Assembly (NCBI GenBank): GCA_041641305.1 | Contig: JBEPYN010000002.1 | Span: 96,001-160,000 of the forward strand | DNA length: 64,000 nt | Direction: 5' to 3' | DNA from: Nitrososphaerota archaeon | Lineage (GTDB): Archaea; Thermoproteota; Nitrososphaeria_A; Caldarchaeales; Caldarchaeaceae | Shown here: piece by piece, positions 8,684 to 20,148 of the stretch | Layout: every line of letters starts with the position of its first letter | How positions within the stretch are numbered: the stretch's first letter is position 1 | The notes under the pieces: generated by a model | Seen by the model: only the letters and a program-made list of their open reading frames with translations | The model's database searches: none | What the model was told of the DNA's origin: nothing | Position numbers and translations under genes: made by a program

Positions 8684-8748
8684 TCCTGACTGCGACAATT
8701 ATAGGCGGTAACACATATATGCTTGTGGCGGATATTAAACGTCATAGT

Positions 8749-9546
8749 ATGACCATAGTAATAGGTTTGAGATGGCAGTATAGGGACTCTGACGCGATAT
8801 TAATCACCTCCGACTCCAAGGTCACTACTTCTCTTGGCATAACTTATGAGATGAGGAAGGTTTACCCGATTTTGTTTAATGATGAAAGGCCTGTGGCTGT
8901 TGTTGGGGTTGCTGGCGATGCTCCTTTGGCTAAATACGGAGTGGAAGTAGTTGAGGATGTCTTACTAGGCTATGCTGAGGAGGGACTACCGCTGGAATAT
9001 GGCAAGTTCAGGTTAGCAGTCAGGGAGGTTGAGCGCCGGCTTATTCGTCACTTCAGCGAGCTCAGAACTCACGGTATTGACCCAAGCTTCCAGATGCTGC
9101 TAGGCGCCGTGGACCTGAAAGGGAAAGGTTCTCTCTATCTGTTCGACAGCAGGGGACTCTCCGAACCCGTACACGATAACCCGGGCTACGGTATCATAGG
9201 TTCGGGGATGATTACTGGAGGGATTCTGCTGCTTAGGATGATAGGTTTTGAACCTGGGCTAGAGCTAGGACTGCTCTCCGCATTCATAATAGACTCGGTT
9301 AGCGAGGTTGATTCATCGGTTGGCCGGTTCATAGGAGACAGCTACCTAATGAGGTTGGAGACTGAGAACAACGAGAGAAAAATAGTGCTGGGGCCGTTAA
9401 AGGAAGAGGCGCTTATAAAATACAAGGAACAAATACGTGCGAGGAGAGACATAATAGGGAGGATATGGCGGTTATGCGACGAGCTAGGAGAAGAAAAAAT
9501 AACAGAGGTTATCAACAATGTTGAAAAACATAAACATTCATACTAG
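8749..9546 (+). CDS. Divergent proteasome beta-subunit-like Ntn hydrolase without propeptide
   Basis: M-TIVIG (Thr1), ITSDSKVT (Asp17 equivalent), RKVYPI (Lys33 equivalent), GVAGD, MLLGAVD, LYLFDSRG, IIGSG, EVDSSVG; start reassigned from 8719 to ATG 8749. Confidence 0.8.
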   Translation: MTIVIGLRWQYRDSDAILITSDSKVTTSLGITYEMRKVYPILFNDERPVAVVGVAGDAPLAKYGVEVVEDVLLGYAEEGLPLEYGKFRLAVREVERRLIRHFSELRTHGIDPSFQMLLGAVDLKGKGSLYLFDSRGLSEPVHDNPGYGIIGSGMITGGILLLRMIGFEPGLELGLLSAFIIDSVSEVDSSVGRFIGDSYLMRLETENNERKIVLGPLKEEALIKYKEQIRARRDIIGRIWRLCDELGEEKITEVINNVEKHKHSY

Positions 9547-12196: not shown

Positions 12197-12284
12197 GGAG
12201 GATAGATATGATCCGCGGGTTTTCGAGGAGTTAAAGGAGTGAATATTTATTAATAGAACAGCAGTAAAGAGACGAGATAGGCAC

Positions 12285-12827
12285 ATGGTTGTTAAGGTGT
12301 ATCTTCCGACGCCGCTTCGCCAGTATGCCGATGGCCGGGACATGGTTGAGCTGGACGGCTCAACCGTTGGAGAGGTTCTAAACAAGCTAGTAAGCCGCTA
12401 TAACGCGCTTCAGAAGCATCTATTCAACGAAAACGGGGCAATAAGGAGCTTTGTAAACGTTTTCGTCAACAACGAGGACATCAGGTTTCTCGAAGGCGTC
12501 AACACCAAGATAAAGGACGGAGACGTCGTCTACATCATCCCCTCTATAGCTGGTGGACTGAGCATCGCGGCTCCGGCTGCCGTGGCGAGGAAACTGGGCA
12601 GAACGGTGAAGCAGCACGGCAGAATAACCGTTCCCGCGAAGCTTCTCAAAAAAGCCAAGAAAAACGAGGTAACAGTCATCATAGACGACGTCAAATACCT
12701 CTTCGAACCCGACAGATATAACCGCATCTACCTACCCCCTGCTCTCCGGGAAAAGATACTGCACATGTCATCCTTCGAGTTCACCTTGTCCGACGGCGAG
12801 CTCATCCTCAGGTTCAGAAGGTTTTAA
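12285..12827 (+). CDS. Ubiquitin-like (MoaD/ThiS/SAMP/CysO) domain with internal GG fused to a double AbrB/MraZ-like domain
   Basis: VKVYLPTPLR...TVGEVL...VNVFVNNEDIRFLEG..T.IKDGDVVYIIPSIAGG, then VKQHGRITVPAKLLK and PDRYNRIYLPPALRE. Confidence 0.85.
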   Translation: MVVKVYLPTPLRQYADGRDMVELDGSTVGEVLNKLVSRYNALQKHLFNENGAIRSFVNVFVNNEDIRFLEGVNTKIKDGDVVYIIPSIAGGLSIAAPAAVARKLGRTVKQHGRITVPAKLLKKAKKNEVTVIIDDVKYLFEPDRYNRIYLPPALREKILHMSSFEFTLSDGELILRFRRF

Positions 12828-12851
12828 GAGCAGGTAGACATAGGACTTTCC

Positions 12852-13256
12852 ATGGTTAAGTTTGTCGTAACGGTTGAGACGGAGGATGATGTAGAGGTTT
12901 CTCTCGAGGCCTCTTCTAAGGAGGAAGCTTTGGCCAACCTTGACGAGCTTCTCGCGTTGACACGCGCAGTCGCGGAGAGGCTGAAAACCAAGCCGCAGCA
13001 CAAGGCCCCGAAAAGACGTGGAAAATCCGAGGCGGTTAAAGCACTAGAGATAATCGAACAGAAACTCATACCCTCCTCCTTCTTCAGCACCGCGAGAACA
13101 ACAGCTGAAGTGAGACAAAAAATCATCGAGCAATCTGGTCTACCGTTTCAGAGCCGCAAAGTTAGCCAAGCACTGGGTATACTCTATGACAAAGGAACCT
13201 TAACACGTGTCGGGCAAAAAGGCAACTACAGATGGATACTCCCGAAATCGCCGTGA
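12852..13256 (+). CDS. Putative winged-helix DNA-binding protein
   Basis: FFSTARTTAEVRQKI...SRKVSQALGILYDKGTLTRVGQKGNYRW; 24 nt after the Ubl-AbrB gene. Confidence 0.65.
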   Translation: MVKFVVTVETEDDVEVSLEASSKEEALANLDELLALTRAVAERLKTKPQHKAPKRRGKSEAVKALEIIEQKLIPSSFFSTARTTAEVRQKIIEQSGLPFQSRKVSQALGILYDKGTLTRVGQKGNYRWILPKSP

Positions 13257-13300: not shown

Positions 13301-14173
13301 ATGAACGTGGCCGAGACGGTTAGGGTCTATTTTTCGCTGACGAAGCCCAATGTCTGGTGGCTTCTGGCTTTCACGGGGGCGGCGGGAATTTTCGCCGCCT
13401 CCAACGGGTTACCCGACCCCTATCTCTTCACGGTCGCTATTCTTTCAATAACTTTTGGTGTTGCTGGGACGGAGGCTGCTTCAAACTATCTTGAGATGTC
13501 GCTTGACTCTGTGATGAGGAGGACATCGAAGCGTGTTCTTCCGCGGGGGTTGATTAACCCGCCTTGGAAAGCTCTAGTGTTTGGTCTCGTTTTGATGACG
13601 ATTTCTCTCATTTTCGCTATTTTCATCAACCCTGTGACATTTTTCTTCATGGCTTCGGGGATGTTTGACTACTTGGTTGTCTATGTCATGTGGAGTAAGC
13701 GGCGGACGCCGTTGAACATTATTCTCGGAAGCTATGCGGGCGGAGCTCCTCTGATGGCGGGATACACCGCTGTGAGCTATTGGCCGACGCTGGAAGCCTT
13801 CATCCTCGCCGCCTTGATAGTTCTCTGGATTCCGCCGCATATCTGGAGCCTTGCTCTCATATACAAGGAGGACTATGCGAGAGCTCATGTGCCCATGCTC
13901 CCCGTCGTAACCTCAGAGGCCACAGCAATCCGCTGCATCTCCTCAACAACAATAATCTCAGTCCTCTTCACATTCCTCCTCTATTTCCTCTATCCAGAGA
14001 AGTATGGACTCATATATCTTGTCGCAGCCGTGGTCAGCGGGTTGATGATTGTTCTGCCAGCAACCGCGCTGATAGTTAATCCAAACCGTAAAACAGCTTA
14101 CCTACTGTTCAAAACCACGAGCCCACAGCTGTTCATCATTATGCTCGCCGTGGTACTGGACACTTTTATCTAA
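13301..14173 (+). CDS. ctaB: Protoheme IX farnesyltransferase (heme o synthase)
   Basis: LTKP, N..LE...D..MRRTSKRVLPRG, Y...SKRRTPLNI, LWIPPHIWSLA..YKEDYARAHVPMLP. Confidence 0.93.
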   Translation: MNVAETVRVYFSLTKPNVWWLLAFTGAAGIFAASNGLPDPYLFTVAILSITFGVAGTEAASNYLEMSLDSVMRRTSKRVLPRGLINPPWKALVFGLVLMTISLIFAIFINPVTFFFMASGMFDYLVVYVMWSKRRTPLNIILGSYAGGAPLMAGYTAVSYWPTLEAFILAALIVLWIPPHIWSLALIYKEDYARAHVPMLPVVTSEATAIRCISSTTIISVLFTFLLYFLYPEKYGLIYLVAAVVSGLMIVLPATALIVNPNRKTAYLLFKTTSPQLFIIMLAVVLDTFI

Positions 14174-15555: not shown

Positions 15556-17847
15556 GTGAGTGTTGACGAAGAAGCTTACAGCGTTATCCAGGAGTGGCTT
15601 TCGCGTGACAGGTTCATAGTCGTGAAAAAAGACGTCGTCAGACACGAGTCTGTCGCAGGTGTCAGGGGGATGCTTCGCTATGTCGAGGACTATGTCGACG
15701 GCCGCTGTCTCCACGCACGCATCGTGAGAAGCATGGTTCCACATGGGTTGCTCAAGTCAATCAAGTTAAATGACTCGAGTGGACACTTGATTACGGCCCG
15801 TGATGTCCCGGGTGAGAATCAGGTTGGTTACACGGTGGCTGACCAGCCTGTTCTCGCCGAGAAGAAGGTAAGGTTCTACGGTGAGTCTGTCGCGCTCGTG
15901 GTTTCGGACAACGGCTACTCTGCCGAGGATTTGCTTGAGAAAGTTGAGGTAGAGATTGAGCCTCTGCCAGCTGTTTACGATGTTTTCGAGGCTATGGAGA
16001 ACAGGGTTTTGATACATGAGGAGAGGGGCTCCAACATAGCTGTGACGGCGCATGTCAGGAAAGGAGATGTCTCGGTGGGCGAACGCGAGTCTGATGAAGT
16101 TGTGGAGAAGACCTATGTCCTCTCGCCGCAGGACCACGCCTACATGGAGACAGAGGCTGCTCTGGCCATCCCCAGCCCCGACGGCGTAACCGTCATAAGC
16201 CAAGCACAGTACCCACATCTAGCCCAGAAAACCGTCGCAAGAGTTCTCGGCATCCCGTACAGCAAAGTCGCCATCATCCAGCCCGCTATAGGAGGTGCCT
16301 TCGGTGGAAAGGATGACATGGGCCCGATTGTCTCGGCACAGGCCGCCCTCGCATGCTGGAAACTCGGTAAACCAGTCTACCTACAATACAGCCGTGAAGA
16401 AAGTTTCACAAGCCACTGCAAACGCGACCCCGCGGTAATCAAATGCAGAACAGGCGCCTCCCGTGATGGCTTGCTCAAGTTCCTGGATGCAGAGGTTATT
16501 TTTGACAGCGGAGCCTATGCAAACAGGGGCCCCTACACGCTCTGGCGAGCATGTGTCCATGTCGCGGGGCCCTACCGGATACCGCATGTAAACGTTGTCG
16601 GCAAACTTGTATACACAAACAAGGTTTACCAGGGAAGCTTCAGAGGGTTCGGCAATCCGCAGGCAGAGTTCGCGGCTGAGCGGCAGATGGATGAGCTGGC
16701 CCGTCGCCTCGGCATAGACCCAGTAGAGTTCAGGCTCAAAAACCTCCTAAGGCCCGGAGACCTTTCCGCCACCTCGCAGCCCATGCCCGAGGACACAGGC
16801 ATCGCGCCGCTTGTCGAAAAAATGAGGAACACTCTACACATCCCCAAGAAGAAGAGAGAAAACGGCTACCGGTATGGATACGGTTTCGCAGTCGCGTGGC
16901 ACGGCATAAGCACAAGCCGCGGCGTACCCGACTGGGGGTCGGCGACACTAACCGTCCTGAGGGATGGGAGCGTGGTTGTCTCAAGCGGCGTAGTGGAGTT
17001 TGGACAAGGGACGCATACAGCGATTAAGCAGGTTGTAGCGGAGGTTTTGGGCATACCGTATGAGTGGGTGAAGCTCGAGGGTGGAACAAGCTACGCCCCA
17101 GACACGGGTGCGACGCACGGCTCCCGTGGACTGACCCTCGGCGGCTCAGCCGCTCTTGTGGCAGCGGGCCGTGTGAGAAAAAGGGTTGTGAAGGTGGCTG
17201 CGGAGATGCTGGAGGCCAACCCCGACGACATCGAGATAGCCGACGGCAAAGTGTTTGTGAAAGGTGTGGAAAACAAGATGCTTGACTGGCGCGACATCGT
17301 CGCCGCATGCTACGCACGGGGAGTAGACCTCACCTCGAGCGGCTACTTCTTCCTCAAGAAGGACAAGTTCGACGAGTCCCGTGGACAGGGCCACGCCTAC
17401 ACCATTTACTCTTTTTCCGCAGTCTTGGTGGAGGTGAGGGTGGACACTGAGACGGGCAAGGTCGAGGTCACGAACGTGTGGCCCGGTGCGGCATGCGGCA
17501 GAATAATCAACCCGGGCATAGCTTTGGGCCAGATACATGGGTCGGTTGTCCAGTCTCTCGGCTACTCGTTGACTGAGCGCATGGTGTTTGAGGAAGGGCG
17601 ACTCCTCACGGCGAGCTTGATGGATTACCTCATCCCCTCGGCTGTCGAGACACCGCGGATACATGAACCCATATACCATGAGGACATCTGCCCACACGGG
17701 CCCCTCGGGGCTAAGGGCTTGGCTGAGCTGGCCCTGATACCCGTCCCCGCAGCCGTGGCCAACGCCATCAAAGACGCCGTCGGAGTAGATGTCGACGAAA
17801 TCCCCGTAGTCCCCGAGAAACTGATCAAGCAGCTACACCAACGGTGA
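15556..17847 (+). CDS. Xanthine dehydrogenase family molybdopterin-binding subunit
   Basis: HAYMETEA, GGAFGGK, SFRGFGNPQ, VEFGQG, GATHGSR, GAKGLAE. Confidence 0.92.
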   Translation: MSVDEEAYSVIQEWLSRDRFIVVKKDVVRHESVAGVRGMLRYVEDYVDGRCLHARIVRSMVPHGLLKSIKLNDSSGHLITARDVPGENQVGYTVADQPVLAEKKVRFYGESVALVVSDNGYSAEDLLEKVEVEIEPLPAVYDVFEAMENRVLIHEERGSNIAVTAHVRKGDVSVGERESDEVVEKTYVLSPQDHAYMETEAALAIPSPDGVTVISQAQYPHLAQKTVARVLGIPYSKVAIIQPAIGGAFGGKDDMGPIVSAQAALACWKLGKPVYLQYSREESFTSHCKRDPAVIKCRTGASRDGLLKFLDAEVIFDSGAYANRGPYTLWRACVHVAGPYRIPHVNVVGKLVYTNKVYQGSFRGFGNPQAEFAAERQMDELARRLGIDPVEFRLKNLLRPGDLSATSQPMPEDTGIAPLVEKMRNTLHIPKKKRENGYRYGYGFAVAWHGISTSRGVPDWGSATLTVLRDGSVVVSSGVVEFGQGTHTAIKQVVAEVLGIPYEWVKLEGGTSYAPDTGATHGSRGLTLGGSAALVAAGRVRKRVVKVAAEMLEANPDDIEIADGKVFVKGVENKMLDWRDIVAACYARGVDLTSSGYFFLKKDKFDESRGQGHAYTIYSFSAVLVEVRVDTETGKVEVTNVWPGAACGRIINPGIALGQIHGSVVQSLGYSLTERMVFEEGRLLTASLMDYLIPSAVETPRIHEPIYHEDICPHGPLGAKGLAELALIPVPAAVANAIKDAVGVDVDEIPVVPEKLIKQLHQR

Positions 17848-17853
17848 GGCAAC

Positions 17854-20148
17854 ATGCTCAGATATGTTGCAAAAGATAGACCACGGCGCGACGCTGTATA
17901 CCGTGTAACAGGCCGCATAAAATACACGGCGGACATCCAGCCCGCCAAAACACTCCACGCAGCTCTTCTCCACTCACCCTACCCACACGCAGTCGTAAAG
18001 CAAATAGATGTCTCAAAAGCTTTGAAGACACCTGGCGTAGCAACGGTTCTGACACCTTTCAACGTCCCGCAGCACAGGTTCGGCAGAACATTCTCACCGG
18101 TGCCATGGAAAGTTATAATGGACAGGAAACTCATAGACAGGGTTCAGCGCTTCGCGGGCGACATAGTCGCAGCCGTTGCAGCCGATTCTCTCGAAACAGC
18201 CTACGACGCCGTGGAAAAGATTGAGGTGGATTACGAGGTCCTCGATTACGTGGACTCTGCTGAAAAAGCGTTGCAGCCAGATGCGCCGCTTGTGCATGAC
18301 GAGATAGAGGTAGGCGGCGTCGTGAAAAAACTCGAGAGCAACATCGGGTTCATGGACACCGTAGAGATAGGCAGCAGAGAAGAAGCCTATTCACGTGTCA
18401 CGAAAACCTATGAGGACAGCTTCCGGACACAGATTCTCTACAACGCCGCGATAGAGCCGCGGGCCATAATTGTTTCACCGAGGCCGGATGGGACGCTTGA
18501 CGTTTTCTGCACAACCCAGTCTATCCATGGAACACGCTACTGGCTGTCCAAGGCTCTTCAGATGCCCATGAACAAGATAGTGGTCCATGGCATGACACTC
18601 GGCGGCGGCTTCGGCGCAAAGTACAACCTCGCCATCCATGAACCCGTCATCGCTTATCTGGCCTACGTAACAGGCCGCACAGTAAAATTCGTCTCAACAC
18701 GTCAGCAGGATTTCTACACAACCGCGCGGAGAGCCGCATACATGGATGTCAGGCTCGGTGTGAGCCGTGAGGGCCGGATTGAGGCTATGGAGATGAAAGC
18801 TGTTCTCCAGAGCGGCGCCTACGCGGACCACATGTTGGAAGCTGTTACATGCACGGGTGGATGGTTCATCTCCAGCTACGCGGCAAGCTACCGATACTTT
18901 GAGGGCAAAGGCGTCTACACCAACCTGCCCGTATGCGGAGCGATGCGTGGCTTCGGCAACCCGCAGCAAAACTTCGCCCTCGAATCGCTTGTCGACGAGA
19001 TAGCGGAAGACCTCGGCATGGACCCTCTCGAGTTTCGTCTAAAGAACCTGCCGCGTGTCGGCGACATCTACTATGGTCAGGGGCCGACGGTTACAACAGT
19101 TATACGGTCGATGGCTCTCGAGCAGGTGGCCCGTAAAACTGCTGAGGCGTTTGGGTGGACAACGGAGAGACAAGTGGTGGACGGCGTGGCCCGCGCCTGC
19201 GGAGTCGCGGTCGGCCATCACACATCGGGAACAGGTGGAGAAATGTCTGAGCAACAGGACAGACAGGAGGGCGCGGGCGTCGTGCTCAAACTCAACGAAG
19301 ACGGCACAATTTCCCTCAACACAGCCATGGTGGAGATGGGCCCAGGCGAACACGAAACACTCGCGGCTATATGCGCCGAGGCGCTGGGAACAAAGCCCGA
19401 AGACATCTACGTCGAGATAGGCAACACTCAGTACACGCCCTTCGACATGGGGACGCATGCAAGCCGAGGAACCTACGTAGGAGGACTCGCCGTCGTCTCT
19501 GCAGCAGAGAAACTCAGGGAACAAATCTTGACACAGGCGGCTGAGATGCTTGAATGCTCGCCGAAGGACCTGCGCATAGAAGATGGATGGGTCAAACATG
19601 TAGAGGACGAAGGTAAGCGGCTCAGCCTCTCGCATGTTGCTATGCGGTTCAAGACACGGAAAGGGTTTCTACCGATAGCGGTAAGCGGCCTAAGGCCCAA
19701 CGCGGCACCGCCGAGCTGGGCCGTTATCTTCGCACAGGTGGCGGTCGACCTTGAGACAGGCGCCGTGAAGATAGAGAAAATCGCCGGTGGATACGATATA
19801 GGATTGGTCGTCAACCCCTCCGAGGCAGCGGGCCAAGCACATGGAGGAATAGCGACCGGAATAGGCTACGCGTTGCTGGAGGAGGTGGTCGTGCAGGACG
19901 GAAAATACATCAACCCAAGCTTTATGGACTACATGCTCCCCGGCGCCACCGACATCGCAGAAACCCTGGTCTTCTTCGCCGACTCCTACGACCCCTACGG
20001 CCCATTCGGAGCCAAAAGCATAGGCGAGCTCGCCACAAACCCCGTCGCATCAGCCATCGCCAACGCCGTCTCACGAGCAATAGGAAAACGAATGAAAAAA
20101 CTGCCCCTAAGCCCTGAAACAGTCCTCAACGCAGTCAAACTTTTTTAG
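17854..20148 (+). CDS. Xanthine dehydrogenase family molybdopterin-binding subunit (second paralogue)
   Basis: VTGRIKYTAD, GGGFGAK, AMRGFGNPQ, EMGPG, GTHASR, GAKSIGE. Confidence 0.92.
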   Translation: MLRYVAKDRPRRDAVYRVTGRIKYTADIQPAKTLHAALLHSPYPHAVVKQIDVSKALKTPGVATVLTPFNVPQHRFGRTFSPVPWKVIMDRKLIDRVQRFAGDIVAAVAADSLETAYDAVEKIEVDYEVLDYVDSAEKALQPDAPLVHDEIEVGGVVKKLESNIGFMDTVEIGSREEAYSRVTKTYEDSFRTQILYNAAIEPRAIIVSPRPDGTLDVFCTTQSIHGTRYWLSKALQMPMNKIVVHGMTLGGGFGAKYNLAIHEPVIAYLAYVTGRTVKFVSTRQQDFYTTARRAAYMDVRLGVSREGRIEAMEMKAVLQSGAYADHMLEAVTCTGGWFISSYAASYRYFEGKGVYTNLPVCGAMRGFGNPQQNFALESLVDEIAEDLGMDPLEFRLKNLPRVGDIYYGQGPTVTTVIRSMALEQVARKTAEAFGWTTERQVVDGVARACGVAVGHHTSGTGGEMSEQQDRQEGAGVVLKLNEDGTISLNTAMVEMGPGEHETLAAICAEALGTKPEDIYVEIGNTQYTPFDMGTHASRGTYVGGLAVVSAAEKLREQILTQAAEMLECSPKDLRIEDGWVKHVEDEGKRLSLSHVAMRFKTRKGFLPIAVSGLRPNAAPPSWAVIFAQVAVDLETGAVKIEKIAGGYDIGLVVNPSEAAGQAHGGIATGIGYALLEEVVVQDGKYINPSFMDYMLPGATDIAETLVFFADSYDPYGPFGAKSIGELATNPVASAIANAVSRAIGKRMKKLPLSPETVLNAVKLF

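Follow-up and report, generated by a model that had tools for sequence, protein, structure and literature searches.

Architecture of the fusion protein

An open reading frame of 180 codons (12285-12827, + strand) in the window analyzed here, by which we mean the whole stretch of 64,000 nucleotides, raises the question of why a ubiquitin-like protein (Ubl) continues past its Gly-Gly into a probable DNA-binding protein. A sequence-only reading of this locus had proposed either a regulator switched by proteolysis or a Ubl that serves as a built-in degron. The first 91 residues (12285-12557; Gly-Gly codons at 12552-12557) form a beta-grasp domain that ends in IIPSIAGG, after which the frame continues without a stop, as that reading had observed. 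The domain matched Pfam ThiS (E value of 2.7e-14) and scored above the NCBIfam cut-offs for SAMP1 (62.6 bits; cut-off, 60) and moaD_arch (57.9; cut-off, 49.5). Its closest solved structures were CysO proteins (best PDB matches, 4n6e_B and 3dwg_C), with an E value of 1e-17 as opposed to 5e-9 or worse for SAMP1 structures.

The Ubl domain is followed by a ten-residue linker (12558-12587), the least conserved part of the protein, which would have the JAMM cut site at its start, and by amino acids 102 to 180 (12588-12827; stop codon at 12825-12827), a basic domain predicted to form a tandem AbrB-repeat barrel similar to MraZ, PhS018, and B3 domains. The two AbrB motifs reported previously (HGRITVPAKLL and YNRIYLPPALR) were both found in the 89-residue tail. 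The Ubl is acidic (pI 5.7), whereas amino acids 92 to 180 are basic (pI 10.3). In all fused homologs the Gly-Gly is invariant, and the residue that follows it is L, M, or A. The linker had been described as Ala-rich, which holds for this species and its closest relative but not for the other fused homologs; it is probably the remnant of a former intergenic spacer and N terminus.

The C-terminal domain

The Pfam MraZ profile scored above its gathering cut-off in the query, gave two stretches when the tail was scanned alone, and matched 27 of 27 aligned relatives; the tail profile, in turn, matched AbrB at an E value of 0.01. The tandem repeat was called from the motifs and the HMM stretches, and a BLASTP comparison of the first AbrB repeat with the second gave no alignment. 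The second repeat aligns to Bacillus subtilis AbrB, and the equivalents of Asp11, Arg15, and Arg23, for which a role in DNA contact has been described (PMC3159460), are invariant in all 27 sequences.

A tail model based on 27 sequences was a compact barrel (pLDDT 90, pTM 0.75). The nearest solved folds were plant B3, restriction enzyme B3, MraZ, and PhS018, with Z scores of 3.5 to 5.7, none of which is decisive alone, and the top eight structural neighbors were B3, BfiI, or MraZ DNA-binding barrels. The best fold match was only middling (Z of 5.7, rmsd of 2.9, 78 aligned residues), and no Foldseek match with the model reached an E value of 0.001. Atlas neighbors of the model had TM scores of 0.58 to 0.67, and an atlas feature search with the tail returned only a match at 0.78. 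The model of the full-length fusion was too poor (pLDDT 59.7, with the Ubl half under 50) to bear on a possible covering of the DNA-binding face by the Ubl. Judged from its motifs and modeled fold, the tail likely binds DNA. Inspection by eye of the sequences that precede the operon and the Ubl gene revealed no shared operator.

MraZ proper was considered for the tail and rejected, since the scores were 13 to 16 bits against equivalog cut-offs of 98 and 162, the domain has 80 amino acids, and dcw genes were not found nearby. A paralog of the tandem AbrB-like domain, a stand-alone protein of 87 amino acids (G000 C1:757164-757427, - strand; E value of 8e-9), occurs in most genomes of the genus Caldarchaeum.

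The tail is under purifying selection as strong as that on the Ubl, with pN/pS values of 0.07 to 0.25 for the tail, 0.04 to 0.34 for the Ubl, and 0.29 to 0.56 in most pairs for the linker. The linker region of the fused loci lacks a conserved internal start codon, and two loci have no in-frame ATG, GTG, or TTG between codons 80 and 112, so that the tail domain can be made there only from the fusion.

Cleavage of an ortholog by a JAMM protease

The sequence cluster of the fusion protein includes BAJ50561.1 of "Candidatus Caldarchaeum subterraneum," which is Csub_C0702 and is identical to the query at 173 of 180 positions (96%). The synthetic gene published for Csub_C0702 agrees with BAJ50561.1 both at the beginning and over the Gly-Gly junction. 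The 89 extra residues after the Gly-Gly were noted in 2011 by Nunoura et al. (PMC3082918), and Fuchs et al. (2018) reported for this protein, which they term a SAMP precursor, that CsJAMM, the product of the adjacent gene Csub_C0703, cuts it in vitro into N- and C-terminal fragments within minutes, whereas CsRpn11 does not (PMC6043591). The evidence consists of gels obtained at high enzyme levels (their Suppl. Fig. 8), and an effector was unnecessary. The JAMM of the genome under study is 91% identical to CsJAMM and retains the E...HSH...D motif. The earlier suggestion that cleavage at the Gly-Gly would free the Ubl and its tail agrees with the published cleavage of the 96%-identical ortholog by JAMM. 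With a ThiS/MoaD beta-grasp domain that carries an internal Gly-Gly and an extension, and with an intact cognate JAMM, the locus has two features of a JAMM-processed Ubl precursor.

A full-text literature search found Csub_C0702 named only in PMC3082918 and PMC6043591, and the passages of these articles considered here treat the tail as the extension of a SAMP precursor, without identification. The extension and its cleavage by JAMM were thus on record, whereas what the tail is and where it came from appear to be new. The new elements comprise an unrelated and probably DNA-binding passenger, its traceable origin from a neighboring gene, and the resemblance to the ubiquitin fusion precursors of eukaryotes.

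Caldarchaeum also possesses a separate eukaryote-type ubiquitin system (PMC3082918). We rejected this system (CsUb/Rpn11) as the one to which the fusion belongs, because its E1/E2/E3 operon lies elsewhere (C1:260-263 kb) and CsRpn11 leaves C0702 uncut. Its presence also bears on the proposal of a built-in degron, by which the Ubl would direct any precursor left uncut to the proteasome (PAN and 20S) and JAMM would rescue the DNA-binding domain. The 20S proteasome of Sulfolobus does engage engineered N-terminal Urm1 fusions, and PAN unfolds them, but these are artificial fusions of a different Ubl, and much of the passenger stalled undegraded (PMC4569737). Considering also that the gene context described below indicates sulfur transfer, and that no evidence of a degron role was found, we regard a degron as quite improbable.

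Distribution and origin of the fusion

A search for the same architecture in other Caldarchaeales had been suggested, and 11 of the 12 Caldarchaeum genomes contain the in-frame fusion, with tails that are 63 to 94% identical to the one studied here. The twelfth genome, which is 76% complete, had no orthologous match to either half. Three sister genera are represented by five genomes, and in all five the Ubl and the AbrB-like domain are encoded by separate, adjacent genes, and the AbrB-like gene (87 to 92 amino acids) begins within a few bases of the Ubl gene. The split Ubls end in GG-stop, GG-SYD, GG-VGA (twice), and GG-EGHA. The sequence-only reading had named a stop after the Gly-Gly and a separate AbrB gene in relatives as evidence against its proposal; this, with the stop at or just after the Gly-Gly, is the arrangement of the sister genera, whereas the Caldarchaeum genomes are fused. 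The separate genes of the sister genera show that each half can function by itself and that the fused state is the derived one, and this favors polyprotein processing over a switch built for the purpose.

Stand-alone homologs of the tail were found in 17 of 19 genomes of the next family, and searches in the other two families of the order gave only two weak partial matches. Apart from one spurious repeat protein, the matches among 50% representatives were all of the fused or the split form. When longer proteins were searched, no further fusion emerged except P0024, a possibly chimeric protein of 368 amino acids recorded once, on a contig of 1.6 kb.

The concatenated EF-2 and RpoB tree resolved the genera as ((g1,g2),(g3,g4)) with 100% support. 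FastTree and a reduced IQ-TREE analysis each gave full support to the family topology; the EF-2 sequence used for the outgroup genome G020 is probably in a wrong frame (819 amino acids, long branch). Given this topology, parsimony favors a single fusion on the stem of Caldarchaeum over two fissions. At the split locus of genome G013, the junction sequence Gly-Gly-stop-His-Met shares the reading frame of the downstream gene and is in the same register as the Gly-Gly-Leu-Ser-Met of some fused forms; this junction illustrates a short route to the fusion and is not proof of the route taken.

Four of the five split relatives have a tail after the Gly-Gly, as do most of the Ubls in the next family. 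That such tails are common in the next family suggests that trimming by JAMM came first. In the CysO-like Ubls of that family (L054-L065), the tails are highly variable and comprise 0 to 11 residues, which suggests relaxed selection on the stop codon wherever JAMM is present.

A stop near the Gly-Gly does exist in the sister genera, so the fusion in this genome might be thought an assembly artifact or a recently lost stop codon. We rejected this reading, the probability of which is close to nil, because the in-frame fusion with its 63 to 94% identical tails occurs in 11 species-level genomes and a full-length ortholog was expressed and cut in the published assays. In addition, the gene is covered by contigs of two other studies, and among the differences listed there were only substitutions and no indel.

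A strain-specific island and a probable promoter

The first 12,247 positions of the window are the right part of an island of 28,270 bp (G000 C2:79978-108247). When the sequence is aligned to that of C. subterraneum, the break falls exactly in the spacer between JAMM and Ubl genes, and in strains from two other runs or studies, one of which is near-identical, the JAMM end is joined directly to position 12248; the island is therefore strain specific. Its genes include a type IIG-like restriction-methyltransferase, a PLD-SNF2 helicase, and a cytosine methylase-like gene. Both ends carry what appear by eye to be transposase-like remnants, with no Pfam match, and no target-site duplication was found at the ends. 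An island open reading frame of 275 amino acids (8719-9546, + strand) matched Pfam Proteasome weakly (E value of 0.04), and its codon 11 may begin a Met-Thr start of the type seen in N-terminal-nucleophile hydrolases; PDB and PADLOC searches did not support this assignment.

A TATA-like box, an all-A/T 8-mer, lies upstream of the fusion gene (12243-12255, + strand). An all-A/T 8-mer was present 35 to 42 nucleotides before the ATG in 15 of 15 family loci, as compared to a genome-wide chance of approximately 1.6% per site, a figure to be read with the relatedness of the loci and the AT richness of intergenic DNA in mind. The box is probably the fusion gene's own promoter, and as the island stops at it, the gene probably keeps this promoter. 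In a metatranscriptome, one read pair of a related strain spanned the gene, which is too little to show expression.

Gene context and a probable sulfur carrier pathway

In relatives, the gene order is a 71-amino-acid ribbon-helix-helix (RHH)-like gene, a cysteine synthase gene, the JAMM gene, the Ubl and AbrB-like sequences, usually the gene for a 134-amino-acid protein, and cyoE. The order RHH-cysM-JAMM-Ubl is kept in Caldarchaeum and its sister genus, whereas in two genera, as in this strain, the Ubl-AbrB unit and cysM-JAMM lie at separate places. Here, the cysM-like gene (G000 C2:78634-79542) and the intact JAMM gene (G000 C2:79539-79961) lie 28 kb upstream and outside the window, and the heme o synthase gene (cyoE/ctaB, 13301-14173, + strand; TIGR01473 above its cut-off), the usual downstream neighbor in the genus, lies within it.

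The 71-amino-acid gene (L007:8408-8620; G000 C2:78408-78620) is 91 to 100% identical across the genus, and in all four genera it is the first gene of the cysM-JAMM operon. It had no Pfam match, and the RHH call is a reading of its sequence, by which its product would be a better candidate for the regulator of the cysM-JAMM operon than the fused domain. In genome G006, cysteine synthase and JAMM share one open frame of 464 amino acids (L012:2-1168), possibly a second fusion or a frameshift in this operon.

The gene that follows the fusion gene after a gap of 24 nucleotides encodes a conserved hypothetical protein of 134 amino acids (12852-13256, + strand). Strong matches to it occur in 16 of the 17 genomes of the family, and its gene is directly downstream in 10 of the 11 fused genomes; in C. 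subterraneum it is 54 kb away. The gene and the gap are as described previously. The wHTH label given to it was not confirmed in profile searches, which yielded only weak, sub-threshold wHTH matches, and its sequence pattern indicates a probable C-terminal winged helix.

Since the Ubl is behind cysM-like and JAMM genes in relatives, it is most likely a CysO-type carrier. The substrate-binding region of the synthase was most similar to Mycobacterium tuberculosis CysM, with Lys at the position of Arg220, a residue that we take to mark O-phosphoserine specificity. Over its full length, the synthase was most similar to other cysteine synthases and remained below all NCBIfam cut-offs. An E1-rhodanese of the MoeZ type, comprising ThiF and rhodanese, is encoded at G000 C1:672264-673433, and no match of the CysE and SepRS profiles in the genome reached the cut-off. 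Taken as a whole, this gene set would fit a cysteine route of the CysO/CysM/Mec type. The CysO assignment is less than certain because the Ubl gene has its own TATA-like box, because two genera and this strain keep the Ubl-AbrB unit at a distance from cysM-JAMM, and because NCBIfam classes the Ubl as SAMP1.

The same processing would also be compatible with a Ubl that acts mainly as a SAMP1-type modifier or as a general sulfur carrier (for Moco or tRNA thiolation), or with a barrel that is a non-specific, chromatin-type protein. The SAMP1 score above the cut-off, the term SAMP precursor used by Fuchs et al. (PMC6043591), and the absence of linkage to cysM-JAMM in two genera agree with the former, and the proposal that the archaeal AbrB-fold protein Sso7c4 binds DNA non-specifically (PMC3159460) agrees with the latter. 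However, the CysO structures are much closer than those of SAMP1, and a different Ubl gene, the ortholog of Csub_C1603 (CsMoaD; G000 C1:158150-158512, - strand), overlaps the single moaE and probably encodes the Moco carrier, although cross-use of the two Ubls may occur in the cell. We consequently hold these variants to be improbable.

The Csub_C1603 ortholog has 23 residues after its Gly-Gly, as compared to 12 in C. subterraneum, and is a second JAMM substrate. A third Ubl-like open reading frame with a free Gly-Gly end (G000 C1:500204-500758, - strand) is near a gene similar to those for molybdopterin dehydrogenase FAD subunits and may encode a carrier that needs no JAMM.

The fusion had also been thought to link sulfur or Moco status to nearby molybdoenzyme genes, an idea that found no support. 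The xanthine dehydrogenase-family genes (15556-20148, + strand) lie beyond cyoE and an opposite-strand amidohydrolase gene and are nearby in only one of the three relatives examined, whereas the conserved neighbors are a cysM-like gene and a JAMM gene; moaE, for its part, is associated with a different Ubl. The xanthine dehydrogenase-family genes encode two tandem molybdenum subunits, with no adjacent genes for FAD or Fe-S subunits.

Constitutive processing or a regulated switch

We consider a two-protein precursor, that is, a polyprotein processed by JAMM in a largely constitutive manner, to be the best explanation, with a probability of roughly 0.7. A single chain would be made and, largely constitutively, cut after Gly91 by the JAMM zinc protease, the CsJAMM ortholog. 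One product would be a CysO-type Ubl with a C-terminal Gly-Gly; the E1-rhodanese would charge it with sulfur destined for the CysM-like synthase, and a further role as a SAMP modifier is possible. The other would be an AbrB/B3-like barrel of 89 amino acids that probably binds DNA, as its stand-alone orthologs presumably do. Sister genera obtain this pair of proteins from two genes. The two adjacent, co-oriented genes would have merged once, in the Caldarchaeum ancestor, and the fusion would have been tolerated because JAMM already trimmed tails from the Ubl. As a result, both proteins would be synthesized at a 1:1 ratio and both would depend on JAMM. Two points temper this explanation: the fixation throughout the genus and the near-constant length of the linker could reflect selection for the fused state, and the passages on this protein describe cleavage in vitro only, by gel and at high enzyme levels.

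A rival explanation is a protease-gated transcription switch, in which the Ubl would block or change DNA binding and JAMM would cut only under certain conditions, such as a supply of zinc or freedom of JAMM from Ubl-cysteine or Ubl-protein conjugates, tying sulfur carrier flux to gene expression. The fixed fusion with two conserved halves, the union of an acidic Ubl with a basic tail, and the reactivation of an engineered SAMP1-MoaE through cleavage by the JAMM HvJAMM1 in Haloferax (PMC4443979) are consistent with such a switch. On the other hand, the free domain suffices in the sister genera, the linker and the residue after the Gly-Gly vary, neither an operator nor a regulon was found, and the published cleavage proceeded without an effector. 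Moreover, the pathway needs free Ubl, and holding back cleavage would starve it. We view a switch of this kind as rather unlikely. Stated more broadly, that conditional cleavage by JAMM controls how active or how long-lived the AbrB-like domain is and so gates a transcription factor by sulfur carrier flux, the idea is unlikely. No evidence of regulated cleavage was found for the protease-switchable regulator proposed initially, and the split genes of the sister genera favor simple polyprotein processing. If a switch did operate, it would be a natural prokaryotic Ubl fusion in which a deubiquitinase-type cleavage directly gates a transcription factor; otherwise, the locus is a neat but modest evolutionary case. 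As the protein and the protease have already been purified, according to the published assays, the two explanations are directly testable.

Comparison with known systems

The M. tuberculosis cysteine pathway consists of Mec, CysO, and CysM together with MoeZ (structures 3dwg and 3dwm). The same set of JAMM, CysO-like Ubl, and CysM-like pyridoxal phosphate (PLP) enzyme is clustered in the relatives studied here, with the E1-rhodanese elsewhere. The M. tuberculosis CysO ends in a free Gly-Gly, whereas the JAMM studied here would also mature the carrier and, in doing so, free a folded passenger. The systems further differ in gene order and in the Lys that replaces Arg220.

With the AbrB/MazE/MraZ swapped-hairpin family, PhS018, and the B3 pseudobarrels, the tail shares the presence of two AbrB-type motifs in one chain, the Asp/Arg/Arg positions kept in its second repeat, and a similar modeled barrel. 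It differs in that no toxin partner was identified and in that its family was detected in just two families of this order. MraZ proper, a two-domain repressor of approximately 140 amino acids encoded in the dcw cluster, is longer than the tail of approximately 80 amino acids. Csub_C0702 and CsJAMM are direct orthologs (96% and 91% identical) with the same 89-residue extension, and this strain differs from C. subterraneum in the 28-kb island between JAMM and the Ubl gene.

JAMM-cleaved Ubl fusions as such are already known. They include a MoaD-MoaE fusion cut by DRJAMM of Deinococcus (PMC8832034) and the engineered SAMP1-MoaE (PMC4443979), and archaeal MoaD fusions have been surveyed (PMC11237513); these, too, are prokaryotic proteins of the order Ubl, Gly-Gly, and folded protein, with release by JAMM. 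In MoaD-MoaE fusions, however, the passenger is the Ubl's own partner enzyme, whereas here it is an unrelated, probably DNA-binding protein. The prokaryotic Ubl fusions that we found in the literature join a Ubl to enzymes of its own pathway, and the present passenger is unrelated and conserved. The split versions in the sister genera, one of which is a single stop codon away from fusion, make this locus a dated natural example of the way in which a precursor of this kind originates where a trimming protease is already present.

Eukaryotic ubiquitin-ribosomal protein fusions comprise UBA52, RPS27A, and FAU. Like the protein described here, they combine a Ubl and an unrelated small, basic, nucleic acid-binding protein in one chain that is split after the Gly-Gly. 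The archaeal fusion differs from them in its independent origin, its Ubl of the ThiS/MoaD family, its JAMM metalloprotease, and its confinement to one archaeal genus. The precursor layout of the eukaryotic type has thus arisen independently in a lineage that also holds a eukaryote-type ubiquitin system.
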